From contig JBMZJT010000001.1 of the NCBI GenBank assembly GCA_049617695.1, forward strand, positions 1-58,557: a stretch of 58,557 bases of DNA, given 5' to 3'. Positions within the stretch are counted from its first letter, which is position 1, and each line of letters starts with the position of its first letter. Source of the DNA: Thermoplasmatota archaeon (GTDB taxonomy: Archaea; Thermoplasmatota; E2; JACPAO01; JAHFTW01). Positions 6,008-31,935 of the stretch are shown here, in pieces. The position numbers and the translations under genes are program-made. A model generated the notes under the pieces. The model was not told where the DNA came from and ran no database searches. It worked only from the letters and a program-made list of their open reading frames with translations.

Positions 6008-6898
6008 TTAGCGGCGACGCAGCAGAGCAACGGCGACCAGGACGACGCCCAAGCCGAGGATGGGCAGGCCGGGGGCGTCTTCGCCGTCGCCATCGTCGGT
6101 GGTCGGGGTGGCGGCCATGTTCTTGATGACCCAGGTCACGTTCTGCTCGTTGGTGGGGCCGCAGGCGTCACTGGGGCCGTCCAGGCAGTGGCTGTAGGTG
6201 TAGAACGAGATGACGTCCTCTTCCCAGGCACCGGCCGGAGGCGTCCAAACGACGCTGAGGTTGCGCTGGCGTTCTTCGCCGGCGGGCAGGTTGACGACTT
6301 GGTGGAACAGGTTGCTGATGCTGCCGTTGACACCGATGTCAAGGAACATGACCATGGTGTTGCCGTTGGCCGTGATGTCGAGGCCGATGTCGAATGCGAC
6401 GCTGCCGTTGTCCGCTTCCGTGAATTCGTAGGGGAAGTCGATGCTGGTGGTCATCGTGTGGCCCGGCTTGTAGGCGATTTGGAGGGGCTCGTGGGCGACG
6501 GAGCCGGTCAGGCCGCCGCCGGTGGCCGTCACCGTGAAGGTCTCCGGCACGTAGGCCATGGCATCGCTGGTGGGGTTGATCGTCAGGTCGATTTCCTTGA
6601 CAATGCTCAGGGCGGGGTTGGCACAGTCGGCGCCAGGTGCGAAGTTGACCGTTTCACTGTCCGCGCCGAAGTAGTCGGGCAGATCGGTTTCCAGGGCGAT
6701 GTCGATGCTTGCGCTCTGGCTCGCCAGGAATTCGCTGCAACCCAGGGTGACTTCGAAGGGAATCGTGGTCGCCTGGTCGTGGGGAATGGTTTGAGAAGAA
6801 ATGCCTCCCGTGATGGAGAGGCCGGTGGCTTGCGCGGCACCCATCGGCGCGGCAAGGACAGCCGCCATCAGGAGGAACGGAAGCAGTTTCACGTTCAT
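6008..6898 (-). CDS. secreted surface protein with C-terminal APG-hydrophobic-RRR sorting/anchor signal
   Basis: ATG at 6898 gives the signal peptide MNVKLLPFLLMAAVLAAPMGAAQA. The C-terminus is DDGDGEDAPGLPILGLGVVLVAVALLRRR. The upstream part of ORF 6008..7177 is discarded. Confidence 0.75.
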   Translation of the reverse strand: MNVKLLPFLLMAAVLAAPMGAAQATGLSITGGISSQTIPHDQATTIPFEVTLGCSEFLASQSASIDIALETDLPDYFGADSETVNFAPGADCANPALSIVKEIDLTINPTSDAMAYVPETFTVTATGGGLTGSVAHEPLQIAYKPGHTMTTSIDFPYEFTEADNGSVAFDIGLDITANGNTMVMFLDIGVNGSISNLFHQVVNLPAGEERQRNLSVVWTPPAGAWEEDVISFYTYSHCLDGPSDACGPTNEQNVTWVIKNMAATPTTDDGDGEDAPGLPILGLGVVLVAVALLRRR

Positions 6899-6959
6899 GG
6901 TGGGTGAACGACGAGCCCGGTTTGATTTAGGCTTTCTCCCGACTTGGTTGCGCGCTGCA

Positions 6960-7721
6960 TCAACCCATCTGTATGGGCGCAACCAAGCGGCGCAGCGTGG
7001 CGATGGCGGAGAGGCTAGCCAAGTAGCTCGTGCGTGGATTGGTGGGGCTTGGCAGGTTTTCCACTTCAATCCGGGCCCGGCCAAAGTCGCCTTCAATGAT
7101 GACCTTGTGGCTGTTGCGCGTGGCCAACGGATCGACGGCGACTTGCACCCAGGTGTCATCAAACCCGAGCCCCGCAAGACTCAGGGCTGCGGCGACGTTG
7201 ACGTTCTTGGGGAAGCGCTCGACTGCTTCGCGTGCCGGCCCGTTGAACAGGAGCGTCCACTTGTCGACCGCGTGATCCAGGCCTTGTGGTGGCTTCGTGG
7301 TGACGAGGGTCACGCTCCGCACTTTGGCTTCATTGGCGGCCACGAGGCCATCGATGCCCATGACGGCGCCGCTGGGCAAATGGATCCGTCCGCCGTGGGC
7401 CCTGGCGAGGCCGGTCAGCTCCGCGCGCAGGTCGTCGTCGGCCAATGCGCCGATGGTCAGCATCATGACGTCCTTGCCTGCGGCCAGGGCGTCGCGCAGA
7501 ACGGTTTGAACGACGCCCTTGTTGGCACATTCCACCACGAGATCGCAGGCTTGCACCAGGGCATCCACGTCAGGGGCCACCTGGACCTTGGGCAAGGTGG
7601 ACAGCGCGGCGGTCGCATCGGGGTCCACGTCATGGATGTGAATGCCGTCCACGTCCATGGTCGAGGCGGCCCGGACCACGTCGCTGCCAATGGCGCCACA
7701 GCCGACGACTCCAATGTGCAC
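6960..7721 (-). CDS. nadX: L-aspartate dehydrogenase
   Basis: 253 aa with a Rossmann N-terminus (IGVVGCGAIGS) and the conserved aspartate dehydrogenase C-terminal block (HKVIIEGDFGRARIEVENLPSPTNPRTSYLASLSAIATLRRL). Confidence 0.85.
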   Translation of the reverse strand: MHIGVVGCGAIGSDVVRAASTMDVDGIHIHDVDPDATAALSTLPKVQVAPDVDALVQACDLVVECANKGVVQTVLRDALAAGKDVMMLTIGALADDDLRAELTGLARAHGGRIHLPSGAVMGIDGLVAANEAKVRSVTLVTTKPPQGLDHAVDKWTLLFNGPAREAVERFPKNVNVAAALSLAGLGFDDTWVQVAVDPLATRNSHKVIIEGDFGRARIEVENLPSPTNPRTSYLASLSAIATLRRLVAPIQMG

Positions 7722-7745
7722 GGAGGGTCCACTCGGGTCCGTCTC

Positions 7746-8597
7746 TTAACGGCGGCGGGCAAGCAATGCAATCAGCAGGCCCGGGAGCACCAAGGCGCCG
7801 GCGCTGGGAACATAGACGCCTTCCGTTTCTGCTCCCAATGTGAACGTCTCGGTCGGCCCCTTGCGGCTCGGGTCGTGAACGAACGACTGCGCCACTTGGA
7901 TGGAGAATTCCTCGTTCACCTGATTCTTGCCGTTCTCGAAGGGAGTCACGTACGTGACCGTGAACGTGGCACAGTCTCGCGGGTCGCCAGCGGCATCCAA
8001 AACGAGGGATTCCGGGGCCAGCGGGAAGCCTTTGGTGTCTTGCGTCACGACTTGGAATTCGAACAGGGACGCACCATTGGCGTGGTTGCAAATGGTCACT
8101 GGGTACGGAATTTGTTCCTGGGGTCGGCCTTGGGCTTCTGGTTCCTCCACGCGGAGCTCGAAACCGGGCAGGTACTCCATTTGCAGCACCATCTGGTTTT
8201 CCCAGGCCACGCTACCGTCGCTCCAAGAGAGGCGATATGTGGCCTCCTGCACTTCCAAAGCTCGCAGGATGTCGGTCGCCGTGACTTCCACGCTCACGCG
8301 CTCGTAGGCGGCATCGGCGCCGGCGCATGCCGTTCGGTCAAAATGCACGGCCGACGGTGCCGCGATGGTCACGCCATCGGGTGCAGCGAATTCGAGGTAC
8401 GCCGTGCGTGCGGCGCCCCCCGTCAGATCTCCTTCGAGTGGGTGCGTCAATTCATGGCATTCTGCCACCATGATGCCTTCCATCGTGACCGTGGTGTCGG
8501 GAAGGAGGGGCTCGCGCCACACATCCAAATCCATCGAGAGAGCTTGGGCCGGCGCAGCCACCAAGAGCGGAACGAGCAACCAACGAAGTGCGCGCAT
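7746..8597 (-). CDS. secreted surface protein with C-terminal hydrophobic-RRR anchor
   Basis: ATG at 8597 gives the signal peptide MRALRWLLVPLLVAAPAQA. The C-terminus is GVYVPSAGALVLPGLLIALLARRR. The size and paired-Cys layout resemble 6008..6898. Confidence 0.7.
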   Translation of the reverse strand: MRALRWLLVPLLVAAPAQALSMDLDVWREPLLPDTTVTMEGIMVAECHELTHPLEGDLTGGAARTAYLEFAAPDGVTIAAPSAVHFDRTACAGADAAYERVSVEVTATDILRALEVQEATYRLSWSDGSVAWENQMVLQMEYLPGFELRVEEPEAQGRPQEQIPYPVTICNHANGASLFEFQVVTQDTKGFPLAPESLVLDAAGDPRDCATFTVTYVTPFENGKNQVNEEFSIQVAQSFVHDPSRKGPTETFTLGAETEGVYVPSAGALVLPGLLIALLARRR

Positions 8598-8663
8598 CGG
8601 CAAACGTTTCGTCTCACGTACAAGTCCATTTTGGACAGTGGATGCAAGCGACGGCACGTTTTC

Positions 8664-10281: not shown

Positions 10282-12609
10282 ATGGTGCGAGCACTCCTCA
10301 TCGCCGCCGTGCTTCTGATCGGCACGGCCAGCGCGGCCGACGCAAATCGCCAAGAAGATACATGGCAGGCCGAGGCCGACATTGATGCAACCGCCATGGC
10401 CGCCCTCGAAGATTGGTACTTGTTTGGCACGGCGGACACCACGCCCACCACGGGCCAAGATATTGAGCCCAATCAGCCCGTCTGGTACCTCTGGAATGAA
10501 GCGGTCCGGGTTGGACAACCTCCCGAATGGCGGCAAGATCGCAGCGGCACCTCGGATCCTGAGTGCGTCATTGTCCCGAATCTCGCGGGTGTCCCTCCGG
10601 TGTTCACGGACTGTGTCGGCAACGTGGTGGCCGTTGATCTAGCTTGGCGCAGCGAAGGCCAAGACGGCATCGCGTATGTGTTGGGCGTCAACGACGGTGA
10701 TGGCGAAGGCAGCATGCAGTTGTTCACGAGTCAAGCTGGACTCCAGGATGCCTTCGCGTTTACTGGGGAAACCCTGAACGACGTGGCCATCAGTGGCGAC
10801 GGCGACTACGTGGCCGTTGCAACCACGGTTTCGGGTGACGAACTTGGCGATCCCGATACCGGCAACTTGCGTCTCTTCAACTTCAATGCGGGCACCCTCA
10901 TTTGGGAGCGCCCCCAGGATGATCCCGTGATGACCGTGGACATCGACGTGGCGGACAATGGCGCCACCGGGCGCATTGTCGCATCCTCGGACAGCTTCTT
11001 CCTCGGCTACGACCTGGGCGGTACGGTCTTCCGTCAAGCCCTTGGGGCCAACTTGGAAGCCACGAGCGTCGCGGTCTCCCACACGGCCACCCAGTGGGCT
11101 GTCGCGGGATTCACGCAGGGACATGTCAACTTGTATGGCTTGGAGACGCCACAAGTCTACGACCGACAAGCCAACGACAACCCGGACAACGAAGACATCG
11201 TCCAAGTCGCCATCACGGCCGATGGCCGCTTCTACGCTGCGGCCGACAGCGACGGGGATCTCTTCCTGTACAACAATGAATTCACAGACCTCGGCAGCCC
11301 TGGGCTGCTCGAAAAGATTGACCTCGGCACGACCATTCACGACCTGGCGTTCAGCCACAACGGTCGCTACCTCGTCGCCGCGGCCGACAGCACGGTCCAC
11401 TTCTACCGCGTCAGCACCGGCGGCCTCCAAGAATACTGGAGCGACACGCGCACCGGGGCCGTCGAACACGTCGACATCTCAGGAGATGGCGCCACGGTTC
11501 TGGCGACCGTGGGTGACACGGTCCATCGCTACGAAGAAGAGCGGAAATTGACGTTCACTGGGCCTGTCAGCGCCCTCACCATCGAGCCGGGTGCCAAGGA
11601 ACAGGCCACGGTCCAACTCAAGAATGATGGCAACCGAGATGTGGACATCGCGCTGAGCGCCGTCCTTCCGAAGGACTGGGGCGTTGAATTCGATCCCAAG
11701 AGCGTCACCCTGCCTCCTGGAGGCCAACAGAATGTCAAAGTCTCCTTGGTCGCAGCCGATGGTCACCCTGCCGGTGATGAACAGGTCATCATCAAGGCCG
11801 CCACGGGCTCCGGTAGCCAAGAAGTCACTCTTGACGTCGTGGTCCTCCAAGACCGTGTCTGGAACGTGCAGAGCAACGGCACACTCAACGTGGGCCTCGA
11901 TGCAGGCGGCAGCGCCACCCTGACGGTTCTCGTGACCAATGAGGGCAATGCCGTGGATGAAACGACGATCATTGCGACCACCGACAAAGAAGGCTGGAGC
12001 GTGACGGCACAGCCGGCCAGCGTCCGCCTGGATCCTGGTGAAATGACCAAGGTCCGCATCGTCGTACAAGCGCCCAGCGATGCCAAGGAGCTCGAAACGG
12101 CGATGATTCAGGTGTCGGCACTGGCTGAACCCGACGTCGTCGTGGATTTGACGGCGACGGTCGGCGCCAACTTTGGCATCTCCTTTGCTGGCACGCTGCA
12201 AGGCCCGCTTTACCCGGATGAGCGCAAGTCGTTCGAATTGAGCGTCACGAACACCGGCAACGCGCCGGACAGCATCCAGATTCAGACCGAAGGTCTCCCT
12301 CGGGGTTGGGACCTCATCTACCCCGATGGCAACAATCCATACACGGTCTTCAGCCTCCAACCCGGTGCCACGACGACCATTCCCGTCACGGTTGCCGTGG
12401 ATGACGATGCCGAGCTGGCCAACTATCAATTCCGCATCCGGGCCACGAGTCTTGGTGACAGCACCCAGAGTCAAGTCGTCACGATCACAGTCGCCGTGGA
12501 AGAGCTCCCGGTCGAAGAGCCGAAGGACAAGAAGAGTCCGGGGGCTCCGGTCGTTCTCCTGGTTTTGGCCCTGCTCGCCGTGGCCGGAACCCGCCGCTTC
12601 CGACCGTAA
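10282..12609 (+). CDS. secreted surface protein: beta-propeller-like N-terminal repeats plus NEW3/CARDB-like beta-sandwich domains, C-terminal SPG-hydrophobic-RR signal
   Basis: Signal peptide MVRALLIAAVLLIGTASAADA. Repeated propeller-like strands are seen (VAISGDGDYVAVAT, VAITADGRFYAAADSDGDLFLYN, LAFSHNGRYLVAAADSTVHFYR, VDISGDGATVLATVGD). The C-terminal half carries repeats of the L-P-x-G-W ... P-G ... pattern. The tail is KKSPGAPVVLLVLALLAVAGTRRFRP. Confidence 0.8.
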   Translation: MVRALLIAAVLLIGTASAADANRQEDTWQAEADIDATAMAALEDWYLFGTADTTPTTGQDIEPNQPVWYLWNEAVRVGQPPEWRQDRSGTSDPECVIVPNLAGVPPVFTDCVGNVVAVDLAWRSEGQDGIAYVLGVNDGDGEGSMQLFTSQAGLQDAFAFTGETLNDVAISGDGDYVAVATTVSGDELGDPDTGNLRLFNFNAGTLIWERPQDDPVMTVDIDVADNGATGRIVASSDSFFLGYDLGGTVFRQALGANLEATSVAVSHTATQWAVAGFTQGHVNLYGLETPQVYDRQANDNPDNEDIVQVAITADGRFYAAADSDGDLFLYNNEFTDLGSPGLLEKIDLGTTIHDLAFSHNGRYLVAAADSTVHFYRVSTGGLQEYWSDTRTGAVEHVDISGDGATVLATVGDTVHRYEEERKLTFTGPVSALTIEPGAKEQATVQLKNDGNRDVDIALSAVLPKDWGVEFDPKSVTLPPGGQQNVKVSLVAADGHPAGDEQVIIKAATGSGSQEVTLDVVVLQDRVWNVQSNGTLNVGLDAGGSATLTVLVTNEGNAVDETTIIATTDKEGWSVTAQPASVRLDPGEMTKVRIVVQAPSDAKELETAMIQVSALAEPDVVVDLTATVGANFGISFAGTLQGPLYPDERKSFELSVTNTGNAPDSIQIQTEGLPRGWDLIYPDGNNPYTVFSLQPGATTTIPVTVAVDDDAELANYQFRIRATSLGDSTQSQVVTITVAVEELPVEEPKDKKSPGAPVVLLVLALLAVAGTRRFRP

Positions 12610-12670: not shown

Positions 12671-15600
12671 ATGCGTGGACAAATCATTCCTCTAACGATC
12701 GTGGCAACCTTCGTGCTTGGCACGTTGGCGGCCGCCGCCCCGGCGACCGACAGCCAGATCACTGCCGCCGAGAACGCCCTTGACAACGTCGGTCCCCTCG
12801 GGGAAGACGTGCTTCAGGGCGACTGGGAAGAAAAACAGGAACGCCACCGCTGGTACTACCGCGACGGCGATGTCCTCAACTACGCGCGCGAAGGCCGCAA
12901 CGGCAACTGCTGCGGCTCCTGGTCGTACCTGTACGACCCCATCCAAGACCTGCCCGGCCTGGGCATCACCAGCGGCCCGGTCACCTTTGACTGGGGCACC
13001 ATCACCAACGACTTCGAGCTGGACCGCATCGTCTCGTCCGCGCACATCACGACCGGTGGCAGCACCGATGTCTATGTTGAACTCCTCGACGGCGACACGG
13101 TCATTCCTGGCGCCACCGTTATCCACCAATTCGATGCGCTCGTGTCCAACCAATACGACACGCCCGTCATCAGCCTCCTGACCAACGGCCCCGAATACGT
13201 CTCCCTCGTCGAATTCGACCCGCCAGTCGTCATTGCCGAAGGCACCGACCTCAAGGTCCGCGTGTCTGCCCCGGACCCCGTGCCGACCGACACCCAGCCG
13301 ACCGTCTTCAACTACGGCGCCGGCAGCATCGACAGCTACATTGAGCTCCATGGCAACATGGCGCGCGTCAACGCCTGGACCACGAACAACGACGGCGTCA
13401 CAACCGACTCCTTCCCTCTTGCCCAAGACGCGCCCAGTGAAGATCGCCACATCCGCACCTGGGTGGCGCACGTCAGCGCATTGGGCAGCGACCACACGCC
13501 GGGCCGCACGCCCCTCGACCCCGCCCAGCACGGCGTCCAAGTCCGCATTCTGGACAAGGATGGCAACGACCGCACTGGCATCACCGACATCCGTGTGAAC
13601 ACCCGGATCATCAAGGCCGCCGCCCCCGGCATGAACCTCGTCGAATTCGACATCCAATACCCGGACAACCTGCTCGATGAAGCCGGCAACCCGTACGACG
13701 GTCGCCTCATCATCGAGTTGTACGGTCAAAACCAGCAATGGGTCCACCGCATCCCGGTTGCCATCGCTGGCGCCCAAGTGGAGCTGGACCTGGCTGAATT
13801 TGAAGATGCGACCAAGACCATCCTCACGGGCGAGGACACCACGTTCCTCTTCGAGTTGCGCAATGGCGGCATCGTTCCCGATGACGTCATCATCACCGGC
13901 GATGAACTCAATGGCTGGAGCCTCGACGTGTTGGTGGATTCCATCAACTTGTCTCCTGGCGAAAGCCGCGTGTTCCCCATTACGATTCAGCCTCCGGCTA
14001 GCGGCCTGAGTGGCGACTTCCAAAGCTTTGACATCAAGGCCATCAGCAGCCGGACGGGCCAAACCGACACCGAGACGGTCACCGTCATCCTGACGGACAT
14101 TGAAACGAACGGCGTCGATTTGTTGGCCAGTCAATTGGAGACCGTCCAAATTTCGGCCGGTCAGACCAAGAGCATTGGCTTGACGATCAAGAACCTCGGC
14201 AACAGCGCTGAGGACTTCAGCCTCAGCACCGCTGGCGCGCCCCTTGGCTGGAAGGCCAAGCTGAGTCCGTCCAGTACGGAACTGGGTGCCAAGAGCCAGA
14301 GCGGTACCCTGCTGACTGTCACGGCGCCCGAAGATGCCCAACAGGGTGACAAATTCGCCTTGACCGTCACCGTGCGCAGCATCGTGGACAACACCATCAA
14401 GGACACCATCATCGTGCCCTACGAAGTGTTCTTCCGCGAGGACTTCACCCTTGAAGTGAGCCACGAAGCCATTGCCGGTGAATTCCAGAACTACATCACC
14501 ACCTTGGCAGACATGCAGGCGTTCTCGGACACCAACAGTCTGGTCCCTGCGCCCGGCATTCACACCCTGCGCGACGAAGGAACCGATGGCGACACGGCTG
14601 ATTACGCCAACACGGCCACGGTTCCCTGCTCGCCCCTGACCGTCGCAGGCGTTCGCCCCTGCCTCGATGCCAACCCTGGCTCCAACTGGGATGGCCGTGG
14701 CGACCCGGACATTGACTACGACCAATCCACACTGTTCCGCCTGGTCCTGACCAACCATGGCAACCGCGAGGACACCGTGCGCTTGACGCCCAACTGGGTC
14801 TTCGACGGCGCTTGGGAATCTCGCGACGTGGCCGAGTGCGAAGAGCGCGATGGCGGCAACACCGATGGTGTCCCTGATGGCTGGCGCTTCCGCTACTGGG
14901 AGGCCGGCACGCCCCTGCCGCCTGCCCTCGATGGCCCCTACGGCATGACCGATTCCAACAGCCACGACGAGAACCCCGCCGGCGGTCTTGGCAACCGCCG
15001 CCTGTCTGCAGACATCCGTACGGTGGACTTGGAAGCGGGCGAAGAGAAAATCATCTGGGTGGAGCTTGGCTGGCAAATGGTCAAGCGCATGGACGACTCG
15101 GACAACCAGAACACGGACAGCCTTGCAAATTCCGTGTGCACAGAAGGCACGGTCCAATCCGGTGCCGGCACCCGCATGGGTGGTGGCGCCTCCGACGGCG
15201 GTGACTACACGGACGCCACCAAGAACGCCGTCGTCAAGTTCACCGCCGAAAGCCTGCGCGACTTGACCAAGGTGCAAGACCTCTACGTCCGCGCCCACTA
15301 CGAACCCGATGGGTCCCAGGTGCGCGACGGCAGCCAACGCTACTCTGGCCAACACAACCAAGTCTACTTGGGTCTGGACACGGCGGACTACACCAACCCG
15401 GAACAGATTGGCGACCTCAATGTGCACCTCACCAAGGGCACCGAAGAGGAACGCACGGCGGACTTCCACCTGCGCGTCGTCAATGCCGGCAACGAACAGG
15501 ACACCATCCGCGTCGAGATTCCGATTGACACGGACGCCTACGAGTACTTCATCTCGGAAGCGGCCGCCGAACCCGGCGTCGTGACGGCAAACCGCGTGGA

Positions 15601-18124
15601 CCACAACCCCGGCAACCCTCGGGCCGTCGGCTGCACCGACCCTGCTGGCAAGTCCTTCATGGACTGCACTCTCGGTGCCTTCGACGAGATTGACTTCAAC
15701 GTCAACGTCCGTGCCAAGCTCGACAAGGTCCCCATTGGACAAATCCACACCTTGCAAGTGCGGGCAACCAGCCTGGACAGCCTCCAGGTGGCCGGCGGCG
15801 CCGTGACCAGCCTCGTGACGCTCCAAGCCTTGGCAACCGGAACCCATGCCTTTGCCATCACGGAGCCTGTCGTCGCCGATGGTATCCACGATGTCGATGT
15901 CGTTGCAGGGGAAACCTTCCGCGTTCCCTTCGTCATCCAAAACCAGGGCACCAGTTTCGACAACTACCAAGTCGATCTGCTCGAACAACCTCCGGCAGAC
16001 AGTGGCTGGGAAGGCATCATCGGCTTCAACAGCCCACAATTCGTGGCCGCTGGCAAGGACCATGTTGGCTTCCTGACGGTCGCTGCGCCGGAAGATGCCC
16101 AAGTCGGTGATTCGGAGACCTTCCGTGTTCGCGTCGCCAGCCTGGATGGCGTCGATGTGCCCCAACGCACCCTGCGCATCCAAGCCAATGTCGTGGCCGC
16201 ACCGGCCGGCATCGAACTGGTCGCCGATCCGATTGAAATCATTGGATTCCCGGGCAGCACCGTCGATGTCACGTACAAGGCGACGCGCACCAGTGGTCTT
16301 GCCACAAACGTCGACTTTGCCTTGGACGAAGACGCGCTTCCCAACGGATGGAGTGTCGTCGGTGACGCAACGCCAGCCGCCGTCGATTACGACGTCAACG
16401 GCCAAGCGACGTACACGTTCCAAATCCAAGTGCCGAGTGAAGCAATCGGCAGCAGCCGCTTGCCGGTCACGGCCACGGCGACGGACAGCAACGACAACGA
16501 AGCACGTGCGCAAGCGGTCATCAACCTCGACAGCTCTGTCTTCGGGGTCCGCTTGAGCAGTCCTGAAGACTTCGAAGCCGAAGAATTGACCACGAACGTT
16601 GTGGCTGGATCCAAGGTCGAAGTGCCTGTCCGCGTCCAGAACCTGGGCGGCGGCGTCGATCGCATCGCCTTGACAACGGAGCCGCTGCCGGAAGGCTGGC
16701 AGGTCATCTTTAGTGAAGGCAACCCCGACGCGGCAAGCTTCCAGCCATTCGAAGCACGCAACGTCATCGTGACTGTCGTGGCACCGGAAGGCGTTCCCGC
16801 TGGCCAAGGCATCGACGTGGTGCTCGTCGGCACCAGTACGGGTGATGTGACGCGCACGGACAACTTCGTGATCAAGGTCCGCACCGGCCAATCGATTCTC
16901 GAAGTCGGTGTCCCGACGGCGCCCACGCGCTACGTCGCGCCGCTCGAAGAGGTTGTGTACAACTTCGCCGTGCGCAACAACGGCACCGTGCGTGACGAGA
17001 TCACCTTCGGTGCGGGTCTCTCGGCAGCGTACGAAGACTTGCTCCAGGTGTCCTTCAACCCGGCGAGTGCAAACCTGGGCCCTGGTGAAAGCGCCAGTGT
17101 CACGGCGCGGCTGACGGTTCCTGAAGGCTTCCTGTCGGGTGCGGTCATTCCCATCAAGCTGCAAGCCACCAGTGATGGACCGTTCCTCAATGCCTTTGGC
17201 GAATCCTCCGTCGAAGTGCGGCTGCTCGAACACCGCACCCTGGACATTGATAACGATGGCAACCCGGAGTACGCCGTTGACCGCAACCGTGACGGCAGTG
17301 ACGGATTCGAAGACTACACGGATCCCGTCGCCGGAGGCAAAGCCAGTGCATCGATTGACATGAGCCAGTTCTTGACGCCGGAAGCGATCGATGACTGGAC
17401 CGTTCTCGTCACGGACAATGGCACGACGGTGAGCGTCTTCGCCTACAGCTTCGACCTGACTGGCGACGGCCGCATCGACCACTTCATCGACGATGACCAA
17501 GACAACCTGCCCGACACGTTCTGGGATCCCCACACCAACGGCCGCGACGACTTGGAAATTACGTACGATGTCACCAACGATGGCGTGCGTGAATACTTCG
17601 TCGACGTCAACAGCGACGGTCTGCTCGACGTCTGGTACGACATCACCACTGGCCAAGTCGGCCAACTTCTGAAGGTCGACGTCGATGGCGATGGTGCCCC
17701 CGACTTCGTGGTGGACCTCGATGGCGATGGCATGCAAGATGATGGCGAACCCGTGCTCTTTGGTAGCGACGGTCGCATCACGAAGATCACGCAGAGCCTC
17801 GACGTCAACGGCGACGGCCGCCCGGATTTGGTCGTCGATGAAGACGGCGACGGCATTCCGGACTACTTCGTCCCCGCCGGCAAGACTCGTGGTGTCGCGA
17901 TTGTCCTGGAAGACGTCAACGGCGACGGCGTGGAAGACTGGACCTACGACGCCAACAACGACGGCCGCCGCGACAGCTACTACGACCCGGTGACCGGCCA
18001 AACGGGCAGCATCGACACGGGCAGTGAATTCATCGACGGCCTGAGCCGCTACTGGTACGTCCCGACGCTTTTCGCGCTCGTCACCGTCCTGTTCGTCGTC
18101 CTTGTCGTGGTGACCCGGAGGTAA
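12671..18124 (+). CDS. giant (1817 aa) cell-surface protein with multiple NEW3/CARDB-like domains, a C-terminal Ca-binding DxDxDG repeat region and a C-terminal membrane anchor
   Basis: AGGAG-type SD lies 8 nt upstream of the ATG. Signal peptide MRGQIIPLTIVATFVLGTLAAAAPA. A recurrent domain signature is present (TVTAPEDAQQGD, TVAAPEDAQVGD, VVAPEGVPAGQG, LTVPEGFLSG). Twelve DxDxDG loops are present. The tail is YWYVPTLFALVTVLFVVLVVVTRR. Confidence 0.85.
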   Translation: MRGQIIPLTIVATFVLGTLAAAAPATDSQITAAENALDNVGPLGEDVLQGDWEEKQERHRWYYRDGDVLNYAREGRNGNCCGSWSYLYDPIQDLPGLGITSGPVTFDWGTITNDFELDRIVSSAHITTGGSTDVYVELLDGDTVIPGATVIHQFDALVSNQYDTPVISLLTNGPEYVSLVEFDPPVVIAEGTDLKVRVSAPDPVPTDTQPTVFNYGAGSIDSYIELHGNMARVNAWTTNNDGVTTDSFPLAQDAPSEDRHIRTWVAHVSALGSDHTPGRTPLDPAQHGVQVRILDKDGNDRTGITDIRVNTRIIKAAAPGMNLVEFDIQYPDNLLDEAGNPYDGRLIIELYGQNQQWVHRIPVAIAGAQVELDLAEFEDATKTILTGEDTTFLFELRNGGIVPDDVIITGDELNGWSLDVLVDSINLSPGESRVFPITIQPPASGLSGDFQSFDIKAISSRTGQTDTETVTVILTDIETNGVDLLASQLETVQISAGQTKSIGLTIKNLGNSAEDFSLSTAGAPLGWKAKLSPSSTELGAKSQSGTLLTVTAPEDAQQGDKFALTVTVRSIVDNTIKDTIIVPYEVFFREDFTLEVSHEAIAGEFQNYITTLADMQAFSDTNSLVPAPGIHTLRDEGTDGDTADYANTATVPCSPLTVAGVRPCLDANPGSNWDGRGDPDIDYDQSTLFRLVLTNHGNREDTVRLTPNWVFDGAWESRDVAECEERDGGNTDGVPDGWRFRYWEAGTPLPPALDGPYGMTDSNSHDENPAGGLGNRRLSADIRTVDLEAGEEKIIWVELGWQMVKRMDDSDNQNTDSLANSVCTEGTVQSGAGTRMGGGASDGGDYTDATKNAVVKFTAESLRDLTKVQDLYVRAHYEPDGSQVRDGSQRYSGQHNQVYLGLDTADYTNPEQIGDLNVHLTKGTEEERTADFHLRVVNAGNEQDTIRVEIPIDTDAYEYFISEAAAEPGVVTANRVDHNPGNPRAVGCTDPAGKSFMDCTLGAFDEIDFNVNVRAKLDKVPIGQIHTLQVRATSLDSLQVAGGAVTSLVTLQALATGTHAFAITEPVVADGIHDVDVVAGETFRVPFVIQNQGTSFDNYQVDLLEQPPADSGWEGIIGFNSPQFVAAGKDHVGFLTVAAPEDAQVGDSETFRVRVASLDGVDVPQRTLRIQANVVAAPAGIELVADPIEIIGFPGSTVDVTYKATRTSGLATNVDFALDEDALPNGWSVVGDATPAAVDYDVNGQATYTFQIQVPSEAIGSSRLPVTATATDSNDNEARAQAVINLDSSVFGVRLSSPEDFEAEELTTNVVAGSKVEVPVRVQNLGGGVDRIALTTEPLPEGWQVIFSEGNPDAASFQPFEARNVIVTVVAPEGVPAGQGIDVVLVGTSTGDVTRTDNFVIKVRTGQSILEVGVPTAPTRYVAPLEEVVYNFAVRNNGTVRDEITFGAGLSAAYEDLLQVSFNPASANLGPGESASVTARLTVPEGFLSGAVIPIKLQATSDGPFLNAFGESSVEVRLLEHRTLDIDNDGNPEYAVDRNRDGSDGFEDYTDPVAGGKASASIDMSQFLTPEAIDDWTVLVTDNGTTVSVFAYSFDLTGDGRIDHFIDDDQDNLPDTFWDPHTNGRDDLEITYDVTNDGVREYFVDVNSDGLLDVWYDITTGQVGQLLKVDVDGDGAPDFVVDLDGDGMQDDGEPVLFGSDGRITKITQSLDVNGDGRPDLVVDEDGDGIPDYFVPAGKTRGVAIVLEDVNGDGVEDWTYDANNDGRRDSYYDPVTGQTGSIDTGSEFIDGLSRYWYVPTLFALVTVLFVVLVVVTRR
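17243..17990 (+). repeat. array of 12 FG-GAP/VCBS-like DxDxDG calcium-binding loops in six pairs (protein-level repeat within the giant gene)
   Basis: The loops, read from the translation, are DIDNDGNPE, DRNRDGSDG, DLTGDGRID, DDDQDNLPD, DVTNDGVRE, DVNSDGLLD, DVDGDGAPD, DLDGDGMQD, DVNGDGRPD, DEDGDGIPD, DVNGDGVED and DANNDGRRD. Confidence 0.7.
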
Positions 18125-18128: not shown

Positions 18129-19784
18129 ATGCGCATCCAGCTTGTTGCCCTGATGACGGCGCTGGCGCTGCTTCCCGCTGCGCAGGCGCAAGAAGCCCAG
18201 GATCCAATCGTCCATGACGTCCGCCTGATGCTCGGCGATGCCGAAATTTCGAGTATCGACATCATCGACGATCACGCCAAGGCGTTCACCTACGAAGTCG
18301 ATGTCGAAGACCCAGACTTTGGTGGAGAAATCCTGCTCGTTGAATTGGTCGTGCACCTGCCCAACGGGGCGCTCACCTTGCGCCCGACCCTGGCAGAACG
18401 CGATGGGGACATCGAAACTTGGAGTGGCAGCCACCCCGTCGACGACGTGCGCCTCGTGGTCGGCACCCACCCCGCCGAGCTACGCGTCTTCGATCGCAAC
18501 GGAGGCCAGACCTTCTGCGCCATCGAAGGCAACCAAGGCTCCTGCTTCAATGGGCCCGACGTGGACAGCCTCGGCGTCACGTGGACGTCTCAGAGCAGCT
18601 ACCAGCTGGGCCTGGACTTGCTGGACGCCGATGCCGATGAAACCCAAGTTCTTGGACCCGGAGGCAAAATCCGTCTCGACGTCGGTGTCAGCAGTGCCAC
18701 GCAAGATGCCCCCTGGGCATTGCAACATGTCCGCTTCGTCAACGAATACGGCGAATTCACCACGGCTGCCAAGAGTCTCCGCGTCCCCTACGTCATCGGC
18801 CCGCAGGATTTGCAGCAAGGCATGCAGGCCCTGACGATCACGGCAACTGACCGCGCAGGCCGAGCTGTCAGCCTCGAAGTCGATGCCGATGTGGATACGA
18901 AGGCACCGCTGGTCGATGTCGCGCTGCCGGCCTTGACCTACCAAGGTGTCCCCTTCGACGTGCGCGTCCAAGTTGATGACGCCAACGACTACACGGCAAC
19001 CGCCATCCTCGATGATGTGCGGATCAACCAGACCGGTGGCCCGGGCGTAGGATTGGTGCCGTTCACATTCGAACGCGATTTGCTGGGCAACGGCAGTCTG
19101 CTCGTTCGTGTTGTTGACGTTTATGGCAACCAGTTCCTGCGCCAAGTCAACGTGACAACGGTGGAAGCTCGCACCGATTCGACGGTTCGCGTGGAAGTCA
19201 CGCCGAGCCATCCGCTGCCGCAAGAGAACGTCACCGTGCGCTTCACCGCCCAGCAACAAAGCGGTGTTGCGACGTTGCCATTCAACCTCACCTTGACCGT
19301 CGATGGCCTGGGCGTCGTTTGCTGCGATGAAGGCGTCGATGTACCGCTCAACGTGCCATACGAGTATGCGTTCAGCCGCTTCTACCTGCCCGGGCAATAC
19401 GCATTCAATGCAACGATTGCCCCGGTCCCTGGCGTCAACGAAACGGACGACAGCGACCAAACCGATGTCGGCTTCTTCGAGGTGTTCATGGGAAAGGTGG
19501 TCTACAATGATGAGACCTACTTCATGCGCCTTGGCGACGGCGGCATCGAACCCAGCCATGCCGTCAGCCCAGGTGGTAGCCTGTATGACGTCACGGCGCG
19601 GGAGCAGAATGGTGGCACGGTGTTTGCTTTCACGGCCAAAGGCGTCGACCTGTACTGGGATCCGCTCATGCGCGTCACGGACCTGACGCCGGAAGAGACG
19701 GAGCCTGGCGAAGAGAGTCCCGGGGTGCCGGTCGCCCTCGTGCTGCTCCTGGTTGGCATGCTTGCCTGGGCGCGTCGCAGGTAA
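18129..19784 (+). CDS. secreted surface protein with C-terminal SPG-hydrophobic-RRR signal
   Basis: Starts 4 nt after the giant gene stop. Signal peptide MRIQLVALMTALALLPAAQA. The tail is TPEETEPGEESPGVPVALVLLLVGMLAWARRR. Confidence 0.8.
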   Translation: MRIQLVALMTALALLPAAQAQEAQDPIVHDVRLMLGDAEISSIDIIDDHAKAFTYEVDVEDPDFGGEILLVELVVHLPNGALTLRPTLAERDGDIETWSGSHPVDDVRLVVGTHPAELRVFDRNGGQTFCAIEGNQGSCFNGPDVDSLGVTWTSQSSYQLGLDLLDADADETQVLGPGGKIRLDVGVSSATQDAPWALQHVRFVNEYGEFTTAAKSLRVPYVIGPQDLQQGMQALTITATDRAGRAVSLEVDADVDTKAPLVDVALPALTYQGVPFDVRVQVDDANDYTATAILDDVRINQTGGPGVGLVPFTFERDLLGNGSLLVRVVDVYGNQFLRQVNVTTVEARTDSTVRVEVTPSHPLPQENVTVRFTAQQQSGVATLPFNLTLTVDGLGVVCCDEGVDVPLNVPYEYAFSRFYLPGQYAFNATIAPVPGVNETDDSDQTDVGFFEVFMGKVVYNDETYFMRLGDGGIEPSHAVSPGGSLYDVTAREQNGGTVFAFTAKGVDLYWDPLMRVTDLTPEETEPGEESPGVPVALVLLLVGMLAWARRR

Positions 19785-21297: not shown

Positions 21298-21319
21298 GCC
21301 GCGACCGGGTCGCGCCATC

Positions 21320-21997
21320 GTGACTCGTGGCCTCATCCTCGCAGCCGGCATCGGCAGCCGTCTTGGACGAGATATGCCCAAGGCGCTGATTCCGTGGGGC
21401 GACGGCTGCATCGTGGATCAGCAACTCGAGAATTTGGCCGCCGCCGGCATTGATGACGTCACGATCGTGCTCGGATTTCAGGCGGATCGCGTCAAGAGTC
21501 ATGTCGCGGCTCGCTGGCCCCGCGTCACGTTCGTGGACAATCCCGATTACCTGGACACGAACACCGCGAAGTCCATGCTGATTGGCCTCAAGGGTGTGAG
21601 CGACGACGTCATTGCCCTCAATGGCGACGTGGTCTTCGACGCCCAAGTCCTCGATTTGCTCGCGCAAGCTCCTGGCACAGCCGTCGCCGTGGATCCGCGC
21701 GTCTGCGGCGATGAGGAAGTCAAGTACCGCGTGCGTGATGGGCGTCTCGTCGCGTTGTCCAAACAAGTCCACGGTGAAGGCGAAGCGGTTGGAATCAATC
21801 GATTCGCGGCGCAAGATTTGGACGCCCTACGAGTCGCGCTTGCCTATGTTGAAGACGGTGCCTACTTCGAGCGGGCCGTCGAGCACTTGCTCCCCTATGC
21901 GCATGTGCCAGTAGCCGTCGTGCCCATTGGCGACCTGCGGGCCGTGGAAATCGATTTCCCGGAAGATCTGGACCAAGCGCATCGGATGTTTCCATGA
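21320..21997 (+). CDS. nucleotidyltransferase (sugar-phosphate / phosphobase NTP-transferase family)
   Basis: 225 aa with the N-terminal signature LILAAGIGSRLG...PKAL, followed by DNPDY..TN..S. Confidence 0.75.
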   Translation: MTRGLILAAGIGSRLGRDMPKALIPWGDGCIVDQQLENLAAAGIDDVTIVLGFQADRVKSHVAARWPRVTFVDNPDYLDTNTAKSMLIGLKGVSDDVIALNGDVVFDAQVLDLLAQAPGTAVAVDPRVCGDEEVKYRVRDGRLVALSKQVHGEGEAVGINRFAAQDLDALRVALAYVEDGAYFERAVEHLLPYAHVPVAVVPIGDLRAVEIDFPEDLDQAHRMFP

Positions 21998-22770
21998 AGG
22001 TCTCGGTCATCGTCACGACCTATAACGAAGCCAAGCACATTCGTCACTTGCTTGACAGCCTACGCCATCAAGACGGACTTCACGAAGTGATCCTCGTGGA
22101 TGCCGGCAGCAGCGACGACACGGTTGCCATCGCCAAGCGCATTGCAGACGTGCCCCTGCGGGTTATCGTTGAGCCATGTAGCCGCGGTGCCGGACGAAAC
22201 ATTGGCGCTCGGGAGGCCACGGGCGACTTGCTTGCCTTCATCGATGGAGACTGCATCGCCAACAGCCGCTGGTTGGAGGCAATGTTGGCGGCGTGGGATG
22301 GCGAATCGGTGCTGGCCGGCCGCACGGAAATGCTGGGCTATTGGGCCTTCACCAAACTGCACCGCGTGGAGTTGCCCCACCAGAATCAGGACACGACGTG
22401 GCCAAGTTGCAACCTCGCGTATCCTCGTGGCCTGTTCGAGGCCATCGGTGGCTTCGATGAGCGGTTCGTCACGGCCGAAGACATTGACCTGAACTTCCGC
22501 GCCGTGGATGCCGGCGCGCGCATCCAGCATGTGCGGGCGGCCATCGTGTATGCGCGGGCTCGCGACAGCATTACGGGATTCCTGCGCCAAGCCTATTGGA
22601 ATGGATTTGGCCGCAAGCAACTCACCCAGAAACATGGGCGATTGTGGCACGAGTACAAGATCACCGACATGATTCGATTGCAAGGGGGATCCTTCTGGGG
22701 CTTGCTTCGCATGGGGTTCGGGTTCTTTGGCTACATGGCGGCCAAGGCAGGTCGCAGGCCGCCGCACTGA
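21994..22770 (+). CDS. family 2 glycosyltransferase
   Basis: KVSVIVTTYNEAKHI ... ILVDAGSSDDT ... FIDGDC (DxD). The start overlaps the upstream stop by 4 nt. Confidence 0.8.
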   Translation: MKVSVIVTTYNEAKHIRHLLDSLRHQDGLHEVILVDAGSSDDTVAIAKRIADVPLRVIVEPCSRGAGRNIGAREATGDLLAFIDGDCIANSRWLEAMLAAWDGESVLAGRTEMLGYWAFTKLHRVELPHQNQDTTWPSCNLAYPRGLFEAIGGFDERFVTAEDIDLNFRAVDAGARIQHVRAAIVYARARDSITGFLRQAYWNGFGRKQLTQKHGRLWHEYKITDMIRLQGGSFWGLLRMGFGFFGYMAAKAGRRPPH

Positions 22771-22795
22771 AGAAGGTGGGCTGCGTCAACCGCCT

Positions 22796-23491
22796 GTGCG
22801 CGTCACGATCTGCATTCCCACGCTCAACGAAGAGCAGGGCATCGGCCCAACCTTGGACAGTGTGGATCGAGCCGCGTTCCAGTCGTTGGGCCACGAGGTG
22901 GACTTCTTGGTCGTCGATGGTGCGAGCCAAGATCGGACGCAGGTCGAGGCGGAAGCGCGGGGCGCCAAGGTCCTGATCGAGCCGCGCAAGGGCTACGGCC
23001 GGGCGTACAAATCCGGATTCGCAGCCGCCGAGGGGGACATCCTTGTCACCGGCGACGCCGACGGAACCTACCCGTTTGACAAGGCCCACGAATACGTCCA
23101 GTATCTCTTGGAGAATGATCTCGACTTCGTCACCTGCGATCGCTATGGTCAATTGATGCCCGGCTCCATGAGCGGCAAGCATCGCCTGGGCAACTGGGTC
23201 TTGAGCCAAACGACGCGGACGCTGTTTCGAGTTCGGCTGCGCGACAGCCAAAGCGGCATGTGGATCATCCGCAAGGGCGCCCTGGCCAAGTTGCCCATTG
23301 AGCGGTTGCCTGACGGGATGGCGTTCAGTCAGGAAATCAAAATCCATGCCCTGAGGCAGCGGGAACTGCGCGCCGCGGAGATTCCGTCCGAGCTTCATCC
23401 TCGCATCGGCGATGCCGTCATTGAATCCTGGCGCGACGGCTTGGGGAACCTCAAGGCGCTTTTCGGACTGCGCCTGCGCGGCTCAAGGTAG
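22796..23491 (+). CDS. family 2 glycosyltransferase, dolichyl-phosphate hexose synthase-like
   Basis: A GTG at 22796 gives VRVTICIPTLNEEQGIGPTL ... VVDGASQDRT ... TGDADGTY ... SQSGMWIIR. The longer ORF from 22727 would overlap the previous gene by 44 nt. Confidence 0.75.
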   Translation: MRVTICIPTLNEEQGIGPTLDSVDRAAFQSLGHEVDFLVVDGASQDRTQVEAEARGAKVLIEPRKGYGRAYKSGFAAAEGDILVTGDADGTYPFDKAHEYVQYLLENDLDFVTCDRYGQLMPGSMSGKHRLGNWVLSQTTRTLFRVRLRDSQSGMWIIRKGALAKLPIERLPDGMAFSQEIKIHALRQRELRAAEIPSELHPRIGDAVIESWRDGLGNLKALFGLRLRGSR

Positions 23492-29231: not shown

Positions 29232-30599
29232 ATGCGACGCAGTGGTGCGGTGGCCCTTGCTTTGATGATGGCCATGATTGCGACTCCGGCCGAGGCCCAA
29301 GTCAGCAGTTGTGGCGACGGCTTCGAGTTGTTCATGCGCAACCCGGACATGGTGCCCCAATCCGACGGGAAATTCCATGTCAGTGGCGACTTCTTCGTCC
29401 AATTCCAAGTGATTGGCGACAACGCCGACCAAATCGAGACCTTCGCCTTCAGCGTCGGCTTGCCCCCGGAAAACCCGGAATCCATCTGCGATTTGCCCGT
29501 GTGGCCCGCCGGCTTGATGCTGGAAGCGTACAAGGTGGATCAAGACAAGTCGGATGGCTTCTTCATCCTCATGCGCACCAGTGGGCAGACCACGCCGCAG
29601 AACACGGACTTGACCGTCGCCGTGCACGGCTACGATGCCAGCGGCCAGGAAGTTGCTCGCTTCTGGGGGACGGCGGTCGTGGAATCCTGCCCAGGCCAGA
29701 CCCAAGGTGGATGCAGCACCATCAAAGATGAACAAATTCCGTGGCCCGTTTTGCTTCCCGGCGACGGCGAAGTGGCCCTCGTCGATGGTTTCACCGTGGA
29801 ATTTGCCGAGCCCCTCGAATCGTACACTGTGTTCCTCAACGGCGAGGACATCACGGATCAAATGCAGGACTGGGAAGGCCGCCAATGGGATGCGGATACC
29901 TACTACGACTACGGTCCCGCCGGCGTCTTTGCCACGGCCACGCCCATGTGCACGCTCCCGCCGCCGGTCCAAACGTGTGTCACCAAGCCCGGTCCGGCCC
30001 TGCAATGGACGCAGCGCCCCATCAACGACGACGACGTCATCCGCGTCGAAGCGATCGATCTGGCTGGCAACGTCGCCAAGAAGGAAATCCACGTCGGCAG
30101 CAGTGTCGCAGGCGGCACCATCGCCGATGGCTTGCCCCTCTTGACCATGACCTTCGACGAGACCTCCAAAATGGTCGAACCCGGCAAGACCGCCATCTAC
30201 CAGGCTCGCATGGAGAACACCGGCGGCGGCACGGGCCATCCCCTCGTCTCGGCCATCATGCCCGATGCCAACTGGACGTTCGACTGGTTCCCCGGGCACA
30301 AACCAGTCGATGCGGCCAGCGCCGAGACCCAAGAACTCAACGTGCACGTCCCCGCCACGGTGACGCCCGGCATCTACGAAGTCATCGCCGTCATGGAATA
30401 CCAACGCGGCCAAGGAGACGAACGCATCGAATTCCCCTTGGAAGTGCTCGTCGGAGGCGCCCCCGGGGCGGCGAATACGACCGCGCAGCCCGATGACAGC
30501 GACGATGGGGAGGAGTCGCCGGCACCGCTTCTCGTGCTCCCAATTCTCGCCGCGGCGGCCCTGCGACGCAAGCAACGCGCGCACAGCAACCCTTTTTGA
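29232..30599 (+). CDS. secreted Cys-containing surface protein, paralogue 1, with C-terminal SPA-hydrophobic-RRK signal
   Basis: Signal peptide MRRSGAVALALMMAMIATPAEA. The tail is DDSDDGEESPAPLLVLPILAAAALRRKQRAHSNPF. It is clearly alignable with 30621..31935. Confidence 0.8.
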   Translation: MRRSGAVALALMMAMIATPAEAQVSSCGDGFELFMRNPDMVPQSDGKFHVSGDFFVQFQVIGDNADQIETFAFSVGLPPENPESICDLPVWPAGLMLEAYKVDQDKSDGFFILMRTSGQTTPQNTDLTVAVHGYDASGQEVARFWGTAVVESCPGQTQGGCSTIKDEQIPWPVLLPGDGEVALVDGFTVEFAEPLESYTVFLNGEDITDQMQDWEGRQWDADTYYDYGPAGVFATATPMCTLPPPVQTCVTKPGPALQWTQRPINDDDVIRVEAIDLAGNVAKKEIHVGSSVAGGTIADGLPLLTMTFDETSKMVEPGKTAIYQARMENTGGGTGHPLVSAIMPDANWTFDWFPGHKPVDAASAETQELNVHVPATVTPGIYEVIAVMEYQRGQGDERIEFPLEVLVGGAPGAANTTAQPDDSDDGEESPAPLLVLPILAAAALRRKQRAHSNPF

Positions 30600-30620
30600 A
30601 CTGAGCCCTGTGGCTCGGGC

Positions 30621-31382
30621 ATGGTGATGATGCGTGTCCTGGGCGTTGCAGCCCTCTTGGCCCTGGCGATGGTGCCGCAAACGTCGGCCCAGATGGCCTT
30701 CGAACAGTGTGGCGACATCCAGTTGATCTTCCGGAATCCCGACCTGCAACGGGAGAACGACGGCAACATCCACGCCCAAGGCAGCTTCTTTGCCCAATTC
30801 CAGGCCATCGGCCCCGACGCCGACAAGATCACGTTCTTCGGCTTCAGCTTCGGCCCCGCGCCAAGCCCCATCCAAGATGACAGTGGCGTCTGCGATACGC
30901 CTCCGGGCACCTGGCTGACGGGTGCTTACATCCTGAACTACCGCGCCGACACGAACCCCGATGACGGCTTCTTCATCAACCTCCAAACGGACTTGGTCCC
31001 CGATGGCGCCTACACGGCCGCCGTCCACGCCTATGATGCCAACAACCAGGAATTGGCTCGCGCCTGGACCAACGCCCTCGTCGACAACTGCGACGGCGAC
31101 CCGCCGGCCCGCTGCGACGGCGACACGGCCCAGCACGCCAACCAGGACCAAACGGCGCCCTGGCCCATCCTCCTGCCCGGCGACGGCGACATCGAAGCCG
31201 CCCCGGACACGCCCGACGGCGCCACGCTGACCATCGAATTCGCCGAAGCCCTGAGCGACTTGCAAGTCACGATCAACGGCAACGACGAAACCCAGAACCT
31301 TACCGAATGGCCGGGTCGCCAATGGGACGACGACTTGATTCCCGGTTACGGCCCCGCCGGCCTCGGCTCCATTCTCGGGTGA
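30621..31382 (+). CDS. surface protein paralogue 2, N-terminal fragment (gene interrupted by a frame change)
   Basis: Signal peptide MVMMRVLGVAALLALAMVPQTSA. It is collinear with paralogue 1 up to ...GYGPAGL, then reaches a TGA at 31380..31382. Confidence 0.65.
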   Translation: MVMMRVLGVAALLALAMVPQTSAQMAFEQCGDIQLIFRNPDLQRENDGNIHAQGSFFAQFQAIGPDADKITFFGFSFGPAPSPIQDDSGVCDTPPGTWLTGAYILNYRADTNPDDGFFINLQTDLVPDGAYTAAVHAYDANNQELARAWTNALVDNCDGDPPARCDGDTAQHANQDQTAPWPILLPGDGDIEAAPDTPDGATLTIEFAEALSDLQVTINGNDETQNLTEWPGRQWDDDLIPGYGPAGLGSILG

Positions 31383-31395
31383 AGATCTGGTTCGC

Positions 31396-31935
31396 GTGGT
31401 CGCCACCGATGTGGCCGGCAACATCGCGATCAAGGAACTGCACATCGGCAGCGGCGCCGCAGGTGCCATTACGGAAGAACTTCCGAACCTGCAAATCAGT
31501 GTCGACGAGCCCACGAAGACCCTCGGCGCTGGCGACACGGCCATTTTCAAGTTCACCTTGAACAACATCGGCGGCACCACGGCCCACCCGTACAACGGTC
31601 AGGACGTCCCTGAAGGCTGGGGTGCCAGTTGGTTCCCGTCCCACGTCCCCACTGGCCCCGGTGACAAGAATACCCAGGAGCTCAACGTCGAAATTCCGGC
31701 CGAAGCGGCTCCTGGCACCTACAAGGTCAACGCCACGATCTTCTACGAACGCGGCGGCCAAGAAGAGACGCGGACCTTCCCCCTGACGATCAACGTCGGC
31801 AGCGGCGGCGCGCTCCAAGCCGAAGCCCCGGGTGAAGAGGAAGACGAACCCACCGCGGAAGAGAGTCCGGGTGTCGGCGTCGTGGCATTGTTGGCCGTTT
31901 TGGCGGTCGCGATGCTGCGCCGCAAGTCGGCTTGA
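31396..31935 (+). CDS. surface protein paralogue 2, C-terminal fragment with SPG-hydrophobic-RRK signal
   Basis: This frame is open from 31339. EDLVRVVATDVAGNIAIKELHIGS aligns with DDVIRVEAIDLAGNVAKKEIHVGS of paralogue 1. The tail is EESPGVGVVALLAVLAVAMLRRKSA. Confidence 0.65.
   Translation: MVATDVAGNIAIKELHIGSGAAGAITEELPNLQISVDEPTKTLGAGDTAIFKFTLNNIGGTTAHPYNGQDVPEGWGASWFPSHVPTGPGDKNTQELNVEIPAEAAPGTYKVNATIFYERGGQEETRTFPLTINVGSGGALQAEAPGEEEDEPTAEESPGVGVVALLAVLAVAMLRRKSA

Follow-up and report, generated by a model that had tools for sequence, protein, structure and literature searches.

Several genes in a 58,557-nucleotide stretch of DNA from an uncultured Thermoplasmatota archaeon (contig JBMZJT010000001.1 of assembly GCA_049617695.1; the whole stretch is called the window below) encode secreted proteins whose C-terminal tails are laid out like archaeosortase sorting signals, and the same window holds an archaeosortase gene at 36839-38140. 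The locus raises the question of what these tails are and whether they belong with this enzyme. An earlier note on the sequence had listed seven such proteins and proposed that they share a lineage-specific signal, with (S/A)PG-x in place of the canonical PGF, that is cleaved by the archaeosortase. We find that a motif of the form E-[ED]-[SA]-P-G at the membrane junction recurs on unrelated proteins throughout the genome and that the enzyme belongs to the ArtA family. The tails most likely represent a relaxed, or diverged, form of the PGF-CTERM signal, processed by a single ArtA-family archaeosortase to give a lipid-anchored surface proteome; we put the probability of this reading at roughly 0.78.

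A short motif at the membrane junction recurs across the genome

The assembly, a metagenome-assembled genome (MAG) of 1.67 Mb in 72 contigs that is 85% complete, was translated in six frames. Because of the high guanine-plus-cytosine (GC) content, 63% in the window, the resulting lists of open reading frames (ORFs) are noisy and hold many spurious long frames. A hidden Markov model (HMM) of the tail was seeded with 26 tails picked by regular expression, taken through three rounds and trained on the source genome itself. It matched 39-40 ORFs at E<0.01 over the whole assembly, every match ending 0-8 amino acids (aa) before the stop codon, and it matched none of the reversed ORFs used as a control; the tails are thus enriched genome-wide, in line with the earlier proposal.

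The consensus reads E-[ED]-[SA]-P-G-[L/V/x]-[G/P/A], followed by ~15 hydrophobic residues and then RRR; ...EESPGVPVALVLLLVGMLAWARRR is one tail of the E-E-S-P-G type. With 39 tails anchored on the Pro, the columns hold E in 26, E or D in 31, S or A in 38, P in 37 and G in 29. The residue after P-G is L in 12 tails, V in 7, A in 5, P in 4, I in 3 and F in only 3, and G, P or A comes next. The architecture of a sorting signal with a conserved P-G, and without canonical PGF, therefore stands as it had been described. The Pro lies 19-24 aa from the C-terminus, and 11-19 (median 15) mostly hydrophobic residues separate the motif from the first basic residue. No spacer intervenes between the motif and the transmembrane (TM) segment, an arrangement described for the PGF-, PEP- and GlyGly-CTERM signals that have membrane-embedded enzymes (Haft preprint, 10.1101/2023.06.07.544157).

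A non-circular test that made no use of the HMM was run on 93 ORFs having a generic C-terminal TM helix and a basic tail: P-G stood at the junction in 39 of them, compared with 6.8 expected, and [ED][SAT]P[GA] in 26, compared with 0.2 expected. Among likely genes, 22 of the 66 occurrences of [ED][SA]PG fell 18-36 aa from the C-terminus (4.9 expected). Signal-peptide-like N-termini were called by a crude heuristic on 32 of the 39 tail proteins versus 34% of control ORFs. When the tails were removed, the 39 proteins sorted into 28 unrelated families, which indicates that the tail is a portable module rather than an inherited protein end. Within the tails the sequence of the helix varies and only the motif is conserved. 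The carriers that could be identified include two cupredoxins, two M14 carboxypeptidases and, in the window, a choice-of-anchor T protein with propeller-like and CARDB-like parts. Two ORFs, C5:6912-8015 (-) and C5:19140-19484 (-) of G000, are paralogues whose last 60 residues are nearly identical (...EAMAVLYEAEVPLDE[E/Q]SP[G/S]I...), and the shorter of them (114 aa) looks like a truncated duplicate.

Comparison with known sorting signals

No model in NCBIfam 20.0 or Pfam, the two curated collections that we compared, captures the tails. PGF_CTERM (TIGR04126) passes one ORF in the genome (C11:27722-27799, 26.5 bits), which reads ...NDAPGFEIAALL..., and the five window tails that match our HMM score at most 15.2 bits on it; a few canonical PGF tails coexist with the relaxed ones in the source genome. 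A Pfam search found no PGF-CTERM domain. Isolated tails were also below threshold on MYXO-CTERM, GC_trans_RRR, JDVT, PEF and VPxxxP, which are generic models of a helix followed by RRR (PEF 14.4 bits against a cut-off of 23; VPxxxP 9.9 against 30; MYXO mostly below 20). The one exception was a tail that reached 23.1 bits on MYXO-CTERM; like the tails at large, it lacks the invariant Cys of that signal. The comparison with the PGF-, PEF- and VPXXXP-CTERM models suggested in the earlier note thus places the tails below all three.

The tails nonetheless have much in common with PGF-CTERM: a place at the extreme C-terminus, a P-G signature that abuts a TM helix, an Arg cluster, many substrates for one ArtA-family enzyme, diverse secreted proteins as carriers and a genetic link to PssA and PssD (PMC7157517). 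They differ in that Phe after P-G is rare, being replaced by L, V, A, P or I, and in that a conserved prefix, E-[E/D]-[S/A], is added; the ArtA of this system also differs, in its length, in an insertion before the catalytic Cys and in a conserved N-terminal extension. The PEF-CTERM/ArtC, VPXXXP-CTERM/ArtB and MYXO-CTERM/myxosortase systems follow the same tripartite plan of short motif, TM helix and basic cluster, but a matching enzyme subtype was not found here for any of them.

A long ArtA and its operon

The gene at 36839-38140 carries the sole exosortase/archaeosortase signature in the assembly, and its score on the ArtA model TIGR04125 (cut-off 75 bits; Table 1) confirms the earlier assignment. 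On the models for other archaeosortase subtypes (ArtE, ArtD and ArtH) and for paceosortase, window scores were far below the cut-offs. At 426-433 aa the protein departs from the compact form of ~270-320 aa, matching end to end, that is expected of TIGR04125; its match is split between model positions 19-122 and 140-262. In an alignment with 20 relatives, an insertion of ~58 aa with conserved Cys residues (FFYPDxYC...VGxYC) lies directly before the catalytic-Cys helix ILACTAIQS. The active-site residue reported for Haloferax volcanii ArtA is Cys-173 (PMC7157517). C290 (ACTAxQS), R331 (LNLxRN) and H350 of the present enzyme are invariant in 51 aligned homologues. If Arg-214 is, as we assume, the conserved Arg of H. 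volcanii ArtA, then its distance of 41 residues from Cys-173 equals that between C290 and R331.

An AlphaFold (AF2) model of the protein has an overall pLDDT (predicted local distance difference test) of 89.3, with lower values in the insertion, and a fold search of this model against PDB gave no significant match (best E=0.95). Public data contain about 100 long-type ArtAs, every one of them from a MAG of Thermoplasmatota or Thermoplasmata. They form a distinct clade with a clear gap to 313-aa ArtAs at 33% identity. A conserved cytoplasmic extension at the N-terminus, with the motif R-P-H-P-Y-A-x-E, is also common to the long ArtAs and missing from the compact ones.

Genes for a putative archaetidylserine decarboxylase (pssD) and archaetidylserine synthase (pssA) follow artA on the same strand (Table 1), and the order artA-pssD-pssA is kept in five of six related species. 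In H. volcanii, ArtA-dependent processing, both the cleavage and the lipid anchoring, requires PssA and PssD, and the route proposed there involves a thioester intermediate that is resolved by archaetidylethanolamine (PMC7157517). An artA-pssA-pssD cluster is known from Methanosarcina species (Abdul-Halim et al. 2020, PMC7157517), in which, as here, the archaeosortase gene adjoins those for archaetidylserine synthase and decarboxylase on one strand. The present cluster differs from it in gene order, in its uncultured Thermoplasmatota host and in substrates with a relaxed motif.

Distribution among related genomes

Within the order of the source genome, all 30 genomes have between 4 and 42 tail-HMM matches each, and 29 have ArtA, the exception being 83% complete; PGF_CTERM gives 0-6 matches per genome at E<=0.01, and fewer above its cut-off. 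The motif recurs in 40 tails that were taken from 15 further genomes in the family: P is present in 39 of 39 and G in 29 of 39, with L (19), V (8), A (4) or F (4) as the next residue. An even sample of 201 Thermoplasmatota genomes was then compared at a tail threshold of E<=0.001, with at most 40 candidates scored per genome. At least one tail was found in 36 of the 201, each of which also has ArtA, and tails were absent from all 51 genomes without ArtA; signal and archaeosortase thus go together across genomes, as the earlier note anticipated. At least five tails at this threshold were seen only in the order of the source genome and in one genome of family f14; when f14 genomes were searched directly at E<=0.01, each gave 7-12 matches.

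The proposal that the signal is specific to this lineage did not survive this comparison. Sister families have tails reading [DE][ST]PG[LVFP], and [DE][STA]-P-G-[P/L/F/A] tails occur as well in three other Thermoplasmatota families with ArtA of normal length (f14, f31 and f32), where they read ETPGL, DTPGF, QAPGP, DSPGL and similar. Among high-GC Thermoplasmatota, Phe has thus been lost widely, whether or not the ArtA has the insertion of family f1. We had considered this insertion as a simple cause of the relaxed motif and rejected it, since f2, f3, f14, f31 and f32 have (S/T/A)PGx tails together with ArtAs without the insertion. What marks the family of the source genome is its E-[ED]-[SA] prefix and high copy number. 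In the literature that we searched, no paper links archaeosortase with Thermoplasmatota or Poseidoniales.

Genes of the window

All seven C-termini quoted in the earlier note are present at their coordinates and strands (Table 1). Five of the genes match the tail HMM (E from 7e-13 to 8e-7), and the claim of a shared tail holds for these; it does not extend to 12671-18124, which has a plain anchor, or to 7746-8597, which has a tail of its own family. An N-terminal signal peptide had been described on each; obvious Sec-type signal peptides are found on six, and the seventh ORF, 31396-31935, turns out to be the 3' part of a gene with a frameshift.

Table 1. Features of the window discussed in the text, with the C-terminal sequence of each secreted protein and the positions that encode it
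Coordinates	Strand	Feature	C-terminal sequence (encoded at)	Remarks
6008..6898	-	secreted protein, 296 aa, signal peptide	...GDGEDAPGLPILGLGVVLVAVALLRRR (6011-6100)	tail HMM E=2e-11, 0 aa from C-terminus; A1 match 40.7 bits
7746..8597	-	secreted protein, ~283 aa	...TEGVYVPSAGALVLPGLLIALLARRR	family-specific tail
10282..12609	+	surface protein, 775 aa	...KDKKSPGAPVVLLVLALLAVAGTRRFRP (12514-12597)	tail HMM E=5e-9
12671..18124	+	giant surface protein, 1817 aa	YWYVPTLFALVTVLFVVLVVVTRR	plain C-terminal TM anchor, without PG
18129..19784	+	secreted protein, 551 aa, fast-evolving	...TEPGEESPGVPVALVLLLVGMLAWARRR (19692-19781)	tail HMM E=7e-13; A1 match 48 bits
29232..30599	+	secreted protein, 455 aa	...DDGEESPAPLLVLPILAAAALRRKQRAHSNPF (30492-30572)	Ala replaces Gly; tail HMM E=8e-7, 8 aa from C-terminus; A1 match 30.4 bits
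30621..31935	+	frameshifted paralogue of 29232-30599	...TAEESPGVGVVALLAVLAVAMLRRKSA (31840-31926)	pieces 30621-31382 and 31339/31396-31935; tail HMM E=3e-12
35445..36176	-	pssA-like CDP-alcohol phosphatidyltransferase (archaetidylserine synthase)		overlaps end of pssD; PF01066 37.9 bits
36167..36802	-	pssD-like archaetidylserine decarboxylase		directly downstream of artA; PF02666 149.2 bits
36839..38140	-	artA, long subtype, 426-433 aa		TIGR04125 132.7 bits; TIGR04178 59.2-63.7 bits

The protein encoded at 6008-6898 has no match in Pfam or NCBIfam. That at 10282-12609 contains a beta-propeller-like region, an NPCBM_assoc/CARDB-like domain and a FixG_C Ig-like domain (Pfam), and belongs with the choice-of-anchor T family (NCBIfam choice_anch_T, 76.9 bits; cut-off 70). 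The tail of 18129-19784 is among the two best-scoring in the genome; only two homologues of this protein, neither of them named, were found among 5.8 billion proteins. Downstream of 29232-30599 lies its paralogue, broken by a frameshift near 31340-31380. Residues 18-232 of 29232-30599 are 41% identical to the upstream piece, 30621-31382 (BLASTP, 6e-53), and residues 263-408 are 43% identical to the frame containing 31339-31935 (BLASTP, 5e-37). The upstream piece has the signal peptide, which 31396-31935 itself lacks, and the downstream piece has an NPCBM_assoc domain and the tail; the split gene is either a pseudogene or an assembly error.

The two looser tails proved to be of different kinds. 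The protein at 7746-8597 was absent from the tail-HMM matches at E<1. Of 30 family genomes, 29 contain homologues of it, whose C-termini read KGVYVPGP..RRR or RGVYVPSLEP.., followed by a helix and then RRR. This type of tail is conserved and has P-G/S, but it is confined to one protein family and is not the E[ED][SA]PG motif; the protein may be an ArtA substrate of a different, second flavour. Its family (which includes G000 C10:28445-29659 and loci L107-L119) comprises secreted proteins of ~300 aa, present in 1-3 copies per genome, whose tails read K/R-G-V/W-Y-V/I-P-G/S, helix, RRR. The giant protein at 12671-18124 gave no tail-HMM match, and neither it nor its orthologues have P-G. Its orthologues in 13 genomes (loci L121-L133) conserve the helix itself, as YWY[VI]xxLFxLVxxLFVVLxxVTRR. 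A conserved helix with P-G missing is what one sees in an anchor that stays in the membrane, and a sortase probably does not act on this protein. The unusually strong conservation suggests that, within the membrane, the helix interacts with a partner. We also considered whether the two loose tails and C10:28445-29659 form a second signal class, 'YVP[ST]', and rejected this because the orthologues resolve it into the family-specific GVYVP(G/S) tail and an unrelated plain TM anchor.

The idea that much of the cell envelope is encoded here was overstated. The window accounts for 5 of the 39 substrates, compared with 1.4 expected (P=0.013), and other contigs hold similar clusters, C5 having six. 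The enrichment is mild, and the substrate genes are interleaved with housekeeping genes, among them those for aspartate dehydrogenase, a beta-CASP RNase, TFE-alpha, a CBS protein and 2-oxoacid:ferredoxin oxidoreductase. Two adjacent genes for family-2 glycosyltransferases (GT2), at 21994-23491 (+), stand between the surface-protein clusters and may have a role in surface glycosylation. At 39831-41627 (+), ~1.7 kb away from the artA operon, lies the gene for a BNR/Asp-box repeat protein whose N-terminus resembles a lipobox (...VVLAGC) and would represent a different, N-terminal anchoring route.

A proposed route and the alternatives to it

The enzyme is a bona fide ArtA member and a few canonical PGF tails coexist with the others, and for these reasons we regard the tails as relaxed PGF-CTERM signals rather than as a separate class; the coexistence also suggests one enzyme with a tolerant third position. 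Alongside what is observed directly (the motif with its position, enrichment and modularity, and ArtA with its identity, co-occurrence and operon), we propose the following route. Precursors would be exported by way of their Sec-type signal peptides and held in the membrane by the C-terminal helix and the RRR cluster, which would act as a stop-transfer signal. ArtA would then cut at or near S/A-P-G, with its Cys as nucleophile and the conserved Arg and His assisting, and the new C-terminus would be moved onto archaetidylethanolamine, which PssA and PssD, encoded in the same operon, would supply. The outcome would be ~40 lipid-anchored surface proteins, ~2-3% of genes, including cupredoxins, M14 carboxypeptidases and large Ig/CARDB-like proteins.

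Several points weigh against this reading. For this lineage the export, the cleavage and its site, and the lipidation are all predicted from sequence. Of the 39 tails, 38 fall short of the curated PGF_CTERM cut-off of 24.5 bits. According to the title of a study cited in PMC7157517, permuting the PGF motif blocks processing in H. volcanii, so that tolerance of residues other than Phe by the present ArtA is an assumption. The incompleteness of the genome leaves room for a second sorting enzyme. The compared genomes are kin rather than independent samples, and the co-occurrence counts therefore overstate the independent support. Finally, the presence of ArtA does not predict the signal. Of ten small, low-GC genomes from other orders of the same class (G031-G040), nine have a compact ArtA (110-175 bits), yet almost no PGF- or SPG-type tails were detected in them with either model. 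The few that were found read PGFE or PGME, and lowering PGF_CTERM to E<=10 in five of these genomes added only a few weak tails of that type. Their substrates are either few or spelled differently again.

The main rival, in our view an unlikely one, is that the tails are permanent, uncleaved type-I anchors, in which E-[ED]-[SA]-P-G is a juxtamembrane hinge or helix cap that places the ectodomain, and that they are found with ArtA because the genomes share ancestry. The locus does contain a plain TM anchor that is conserved and ends in RR, that of 12671-18124, and the sub-threshold scores of the tails on many generic 'TM + RRR' models, MYXO-CTERM and GC_trans_RRR among them, fit this view; with ArtA present in 75% of the sampled Thermoplasmatota, some co-occurrence is also to be expected. 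What disfavours it is that the tails fix the motif and leave the helix free, the opposite of the 12671-18124 anchor. In addition, one short motif is shared by 28 unrelated families, tails are missing from all 51 ArtA-less genomes of the sample, and a lipid-anchoring operon is both present and conserved. A sorting signal cut by some other enzyme, such as a rhomboid or an unrecognised protease, with ArtA serving only the few canonical PGF tails, would account for the failure of nearly all tails on PGF_CTERM beside one or two canonical tails, and the genome is incomplete and does contain rhomboid-family genes. We consider this less probable still: rhomboids are found in 14 of 14 control genomes, which makes their presence uninformative, the assembly has no further exosortase/archaeosortase signature, P-G is common to these tails and to PGF-CTERM, tail counts track ArtA across the phylum, and no protease gene consistently adjoins the tail-bearing genes of the window.

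A genome of 63% GC with many spurious long ORFs could also yield Ala-, Gly-, Pro- and Arg-rich frame ends by chance, and weak matches to GC-rich models of TM plus RRR are indeed seen. This explanation, to which we give almost no credence, is already refuted by the controls: there are 40 tail-HMM matches in real ORFs and none in reversed ones, the junction motif is in large excess over expectation (26 against 0.2), and proteins of 30 related genomes keep it, whether or not they are orthologous. A different refinement is possible, though we hold it only tentatively: the E-[E/D]-[S/A]-P-G prefix could have co-evolved with the long ArtA clade into a pair with a specificity of its own. The two would then make up a new archaeosortase subtype and a dedicated 'ESPG-CTERM' signal, the enzyme being set apart by the Cys-containing extracytoplasmic insertion beside the catalytic helix and by the N-terminal 'RPHPYA' extension. 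If so, the family could have expanded its lipid-anchored surface proteome to 2-3% of genes. A relaxed PGF-CTERM signal served by one ArtA is the reading that we prefer.

Implications

On this preferred reading, the curated models miss ~97% of the likely ArtA substrates in this genome and probably most of those across high-GC Thermoplasmatota, and the proteins so missed would carry the annotation 'hypothetical'. The finding concerns a variant of an already known system, and its use lies mainly in annotation and in the study of ArtA specificity, for which the motif variants and the ArtA insertion variants offer a natural series. Were (S/T/A)-P-G-x recognised as a signal, it would follow that ArtA does not in general require the Phe of 'PGF', and for abundant, uncultured archaea of sediments and the sea the surface proteome would become defined, with its cupredoxins, carboxypeptidases and large adhesin-like proteins.

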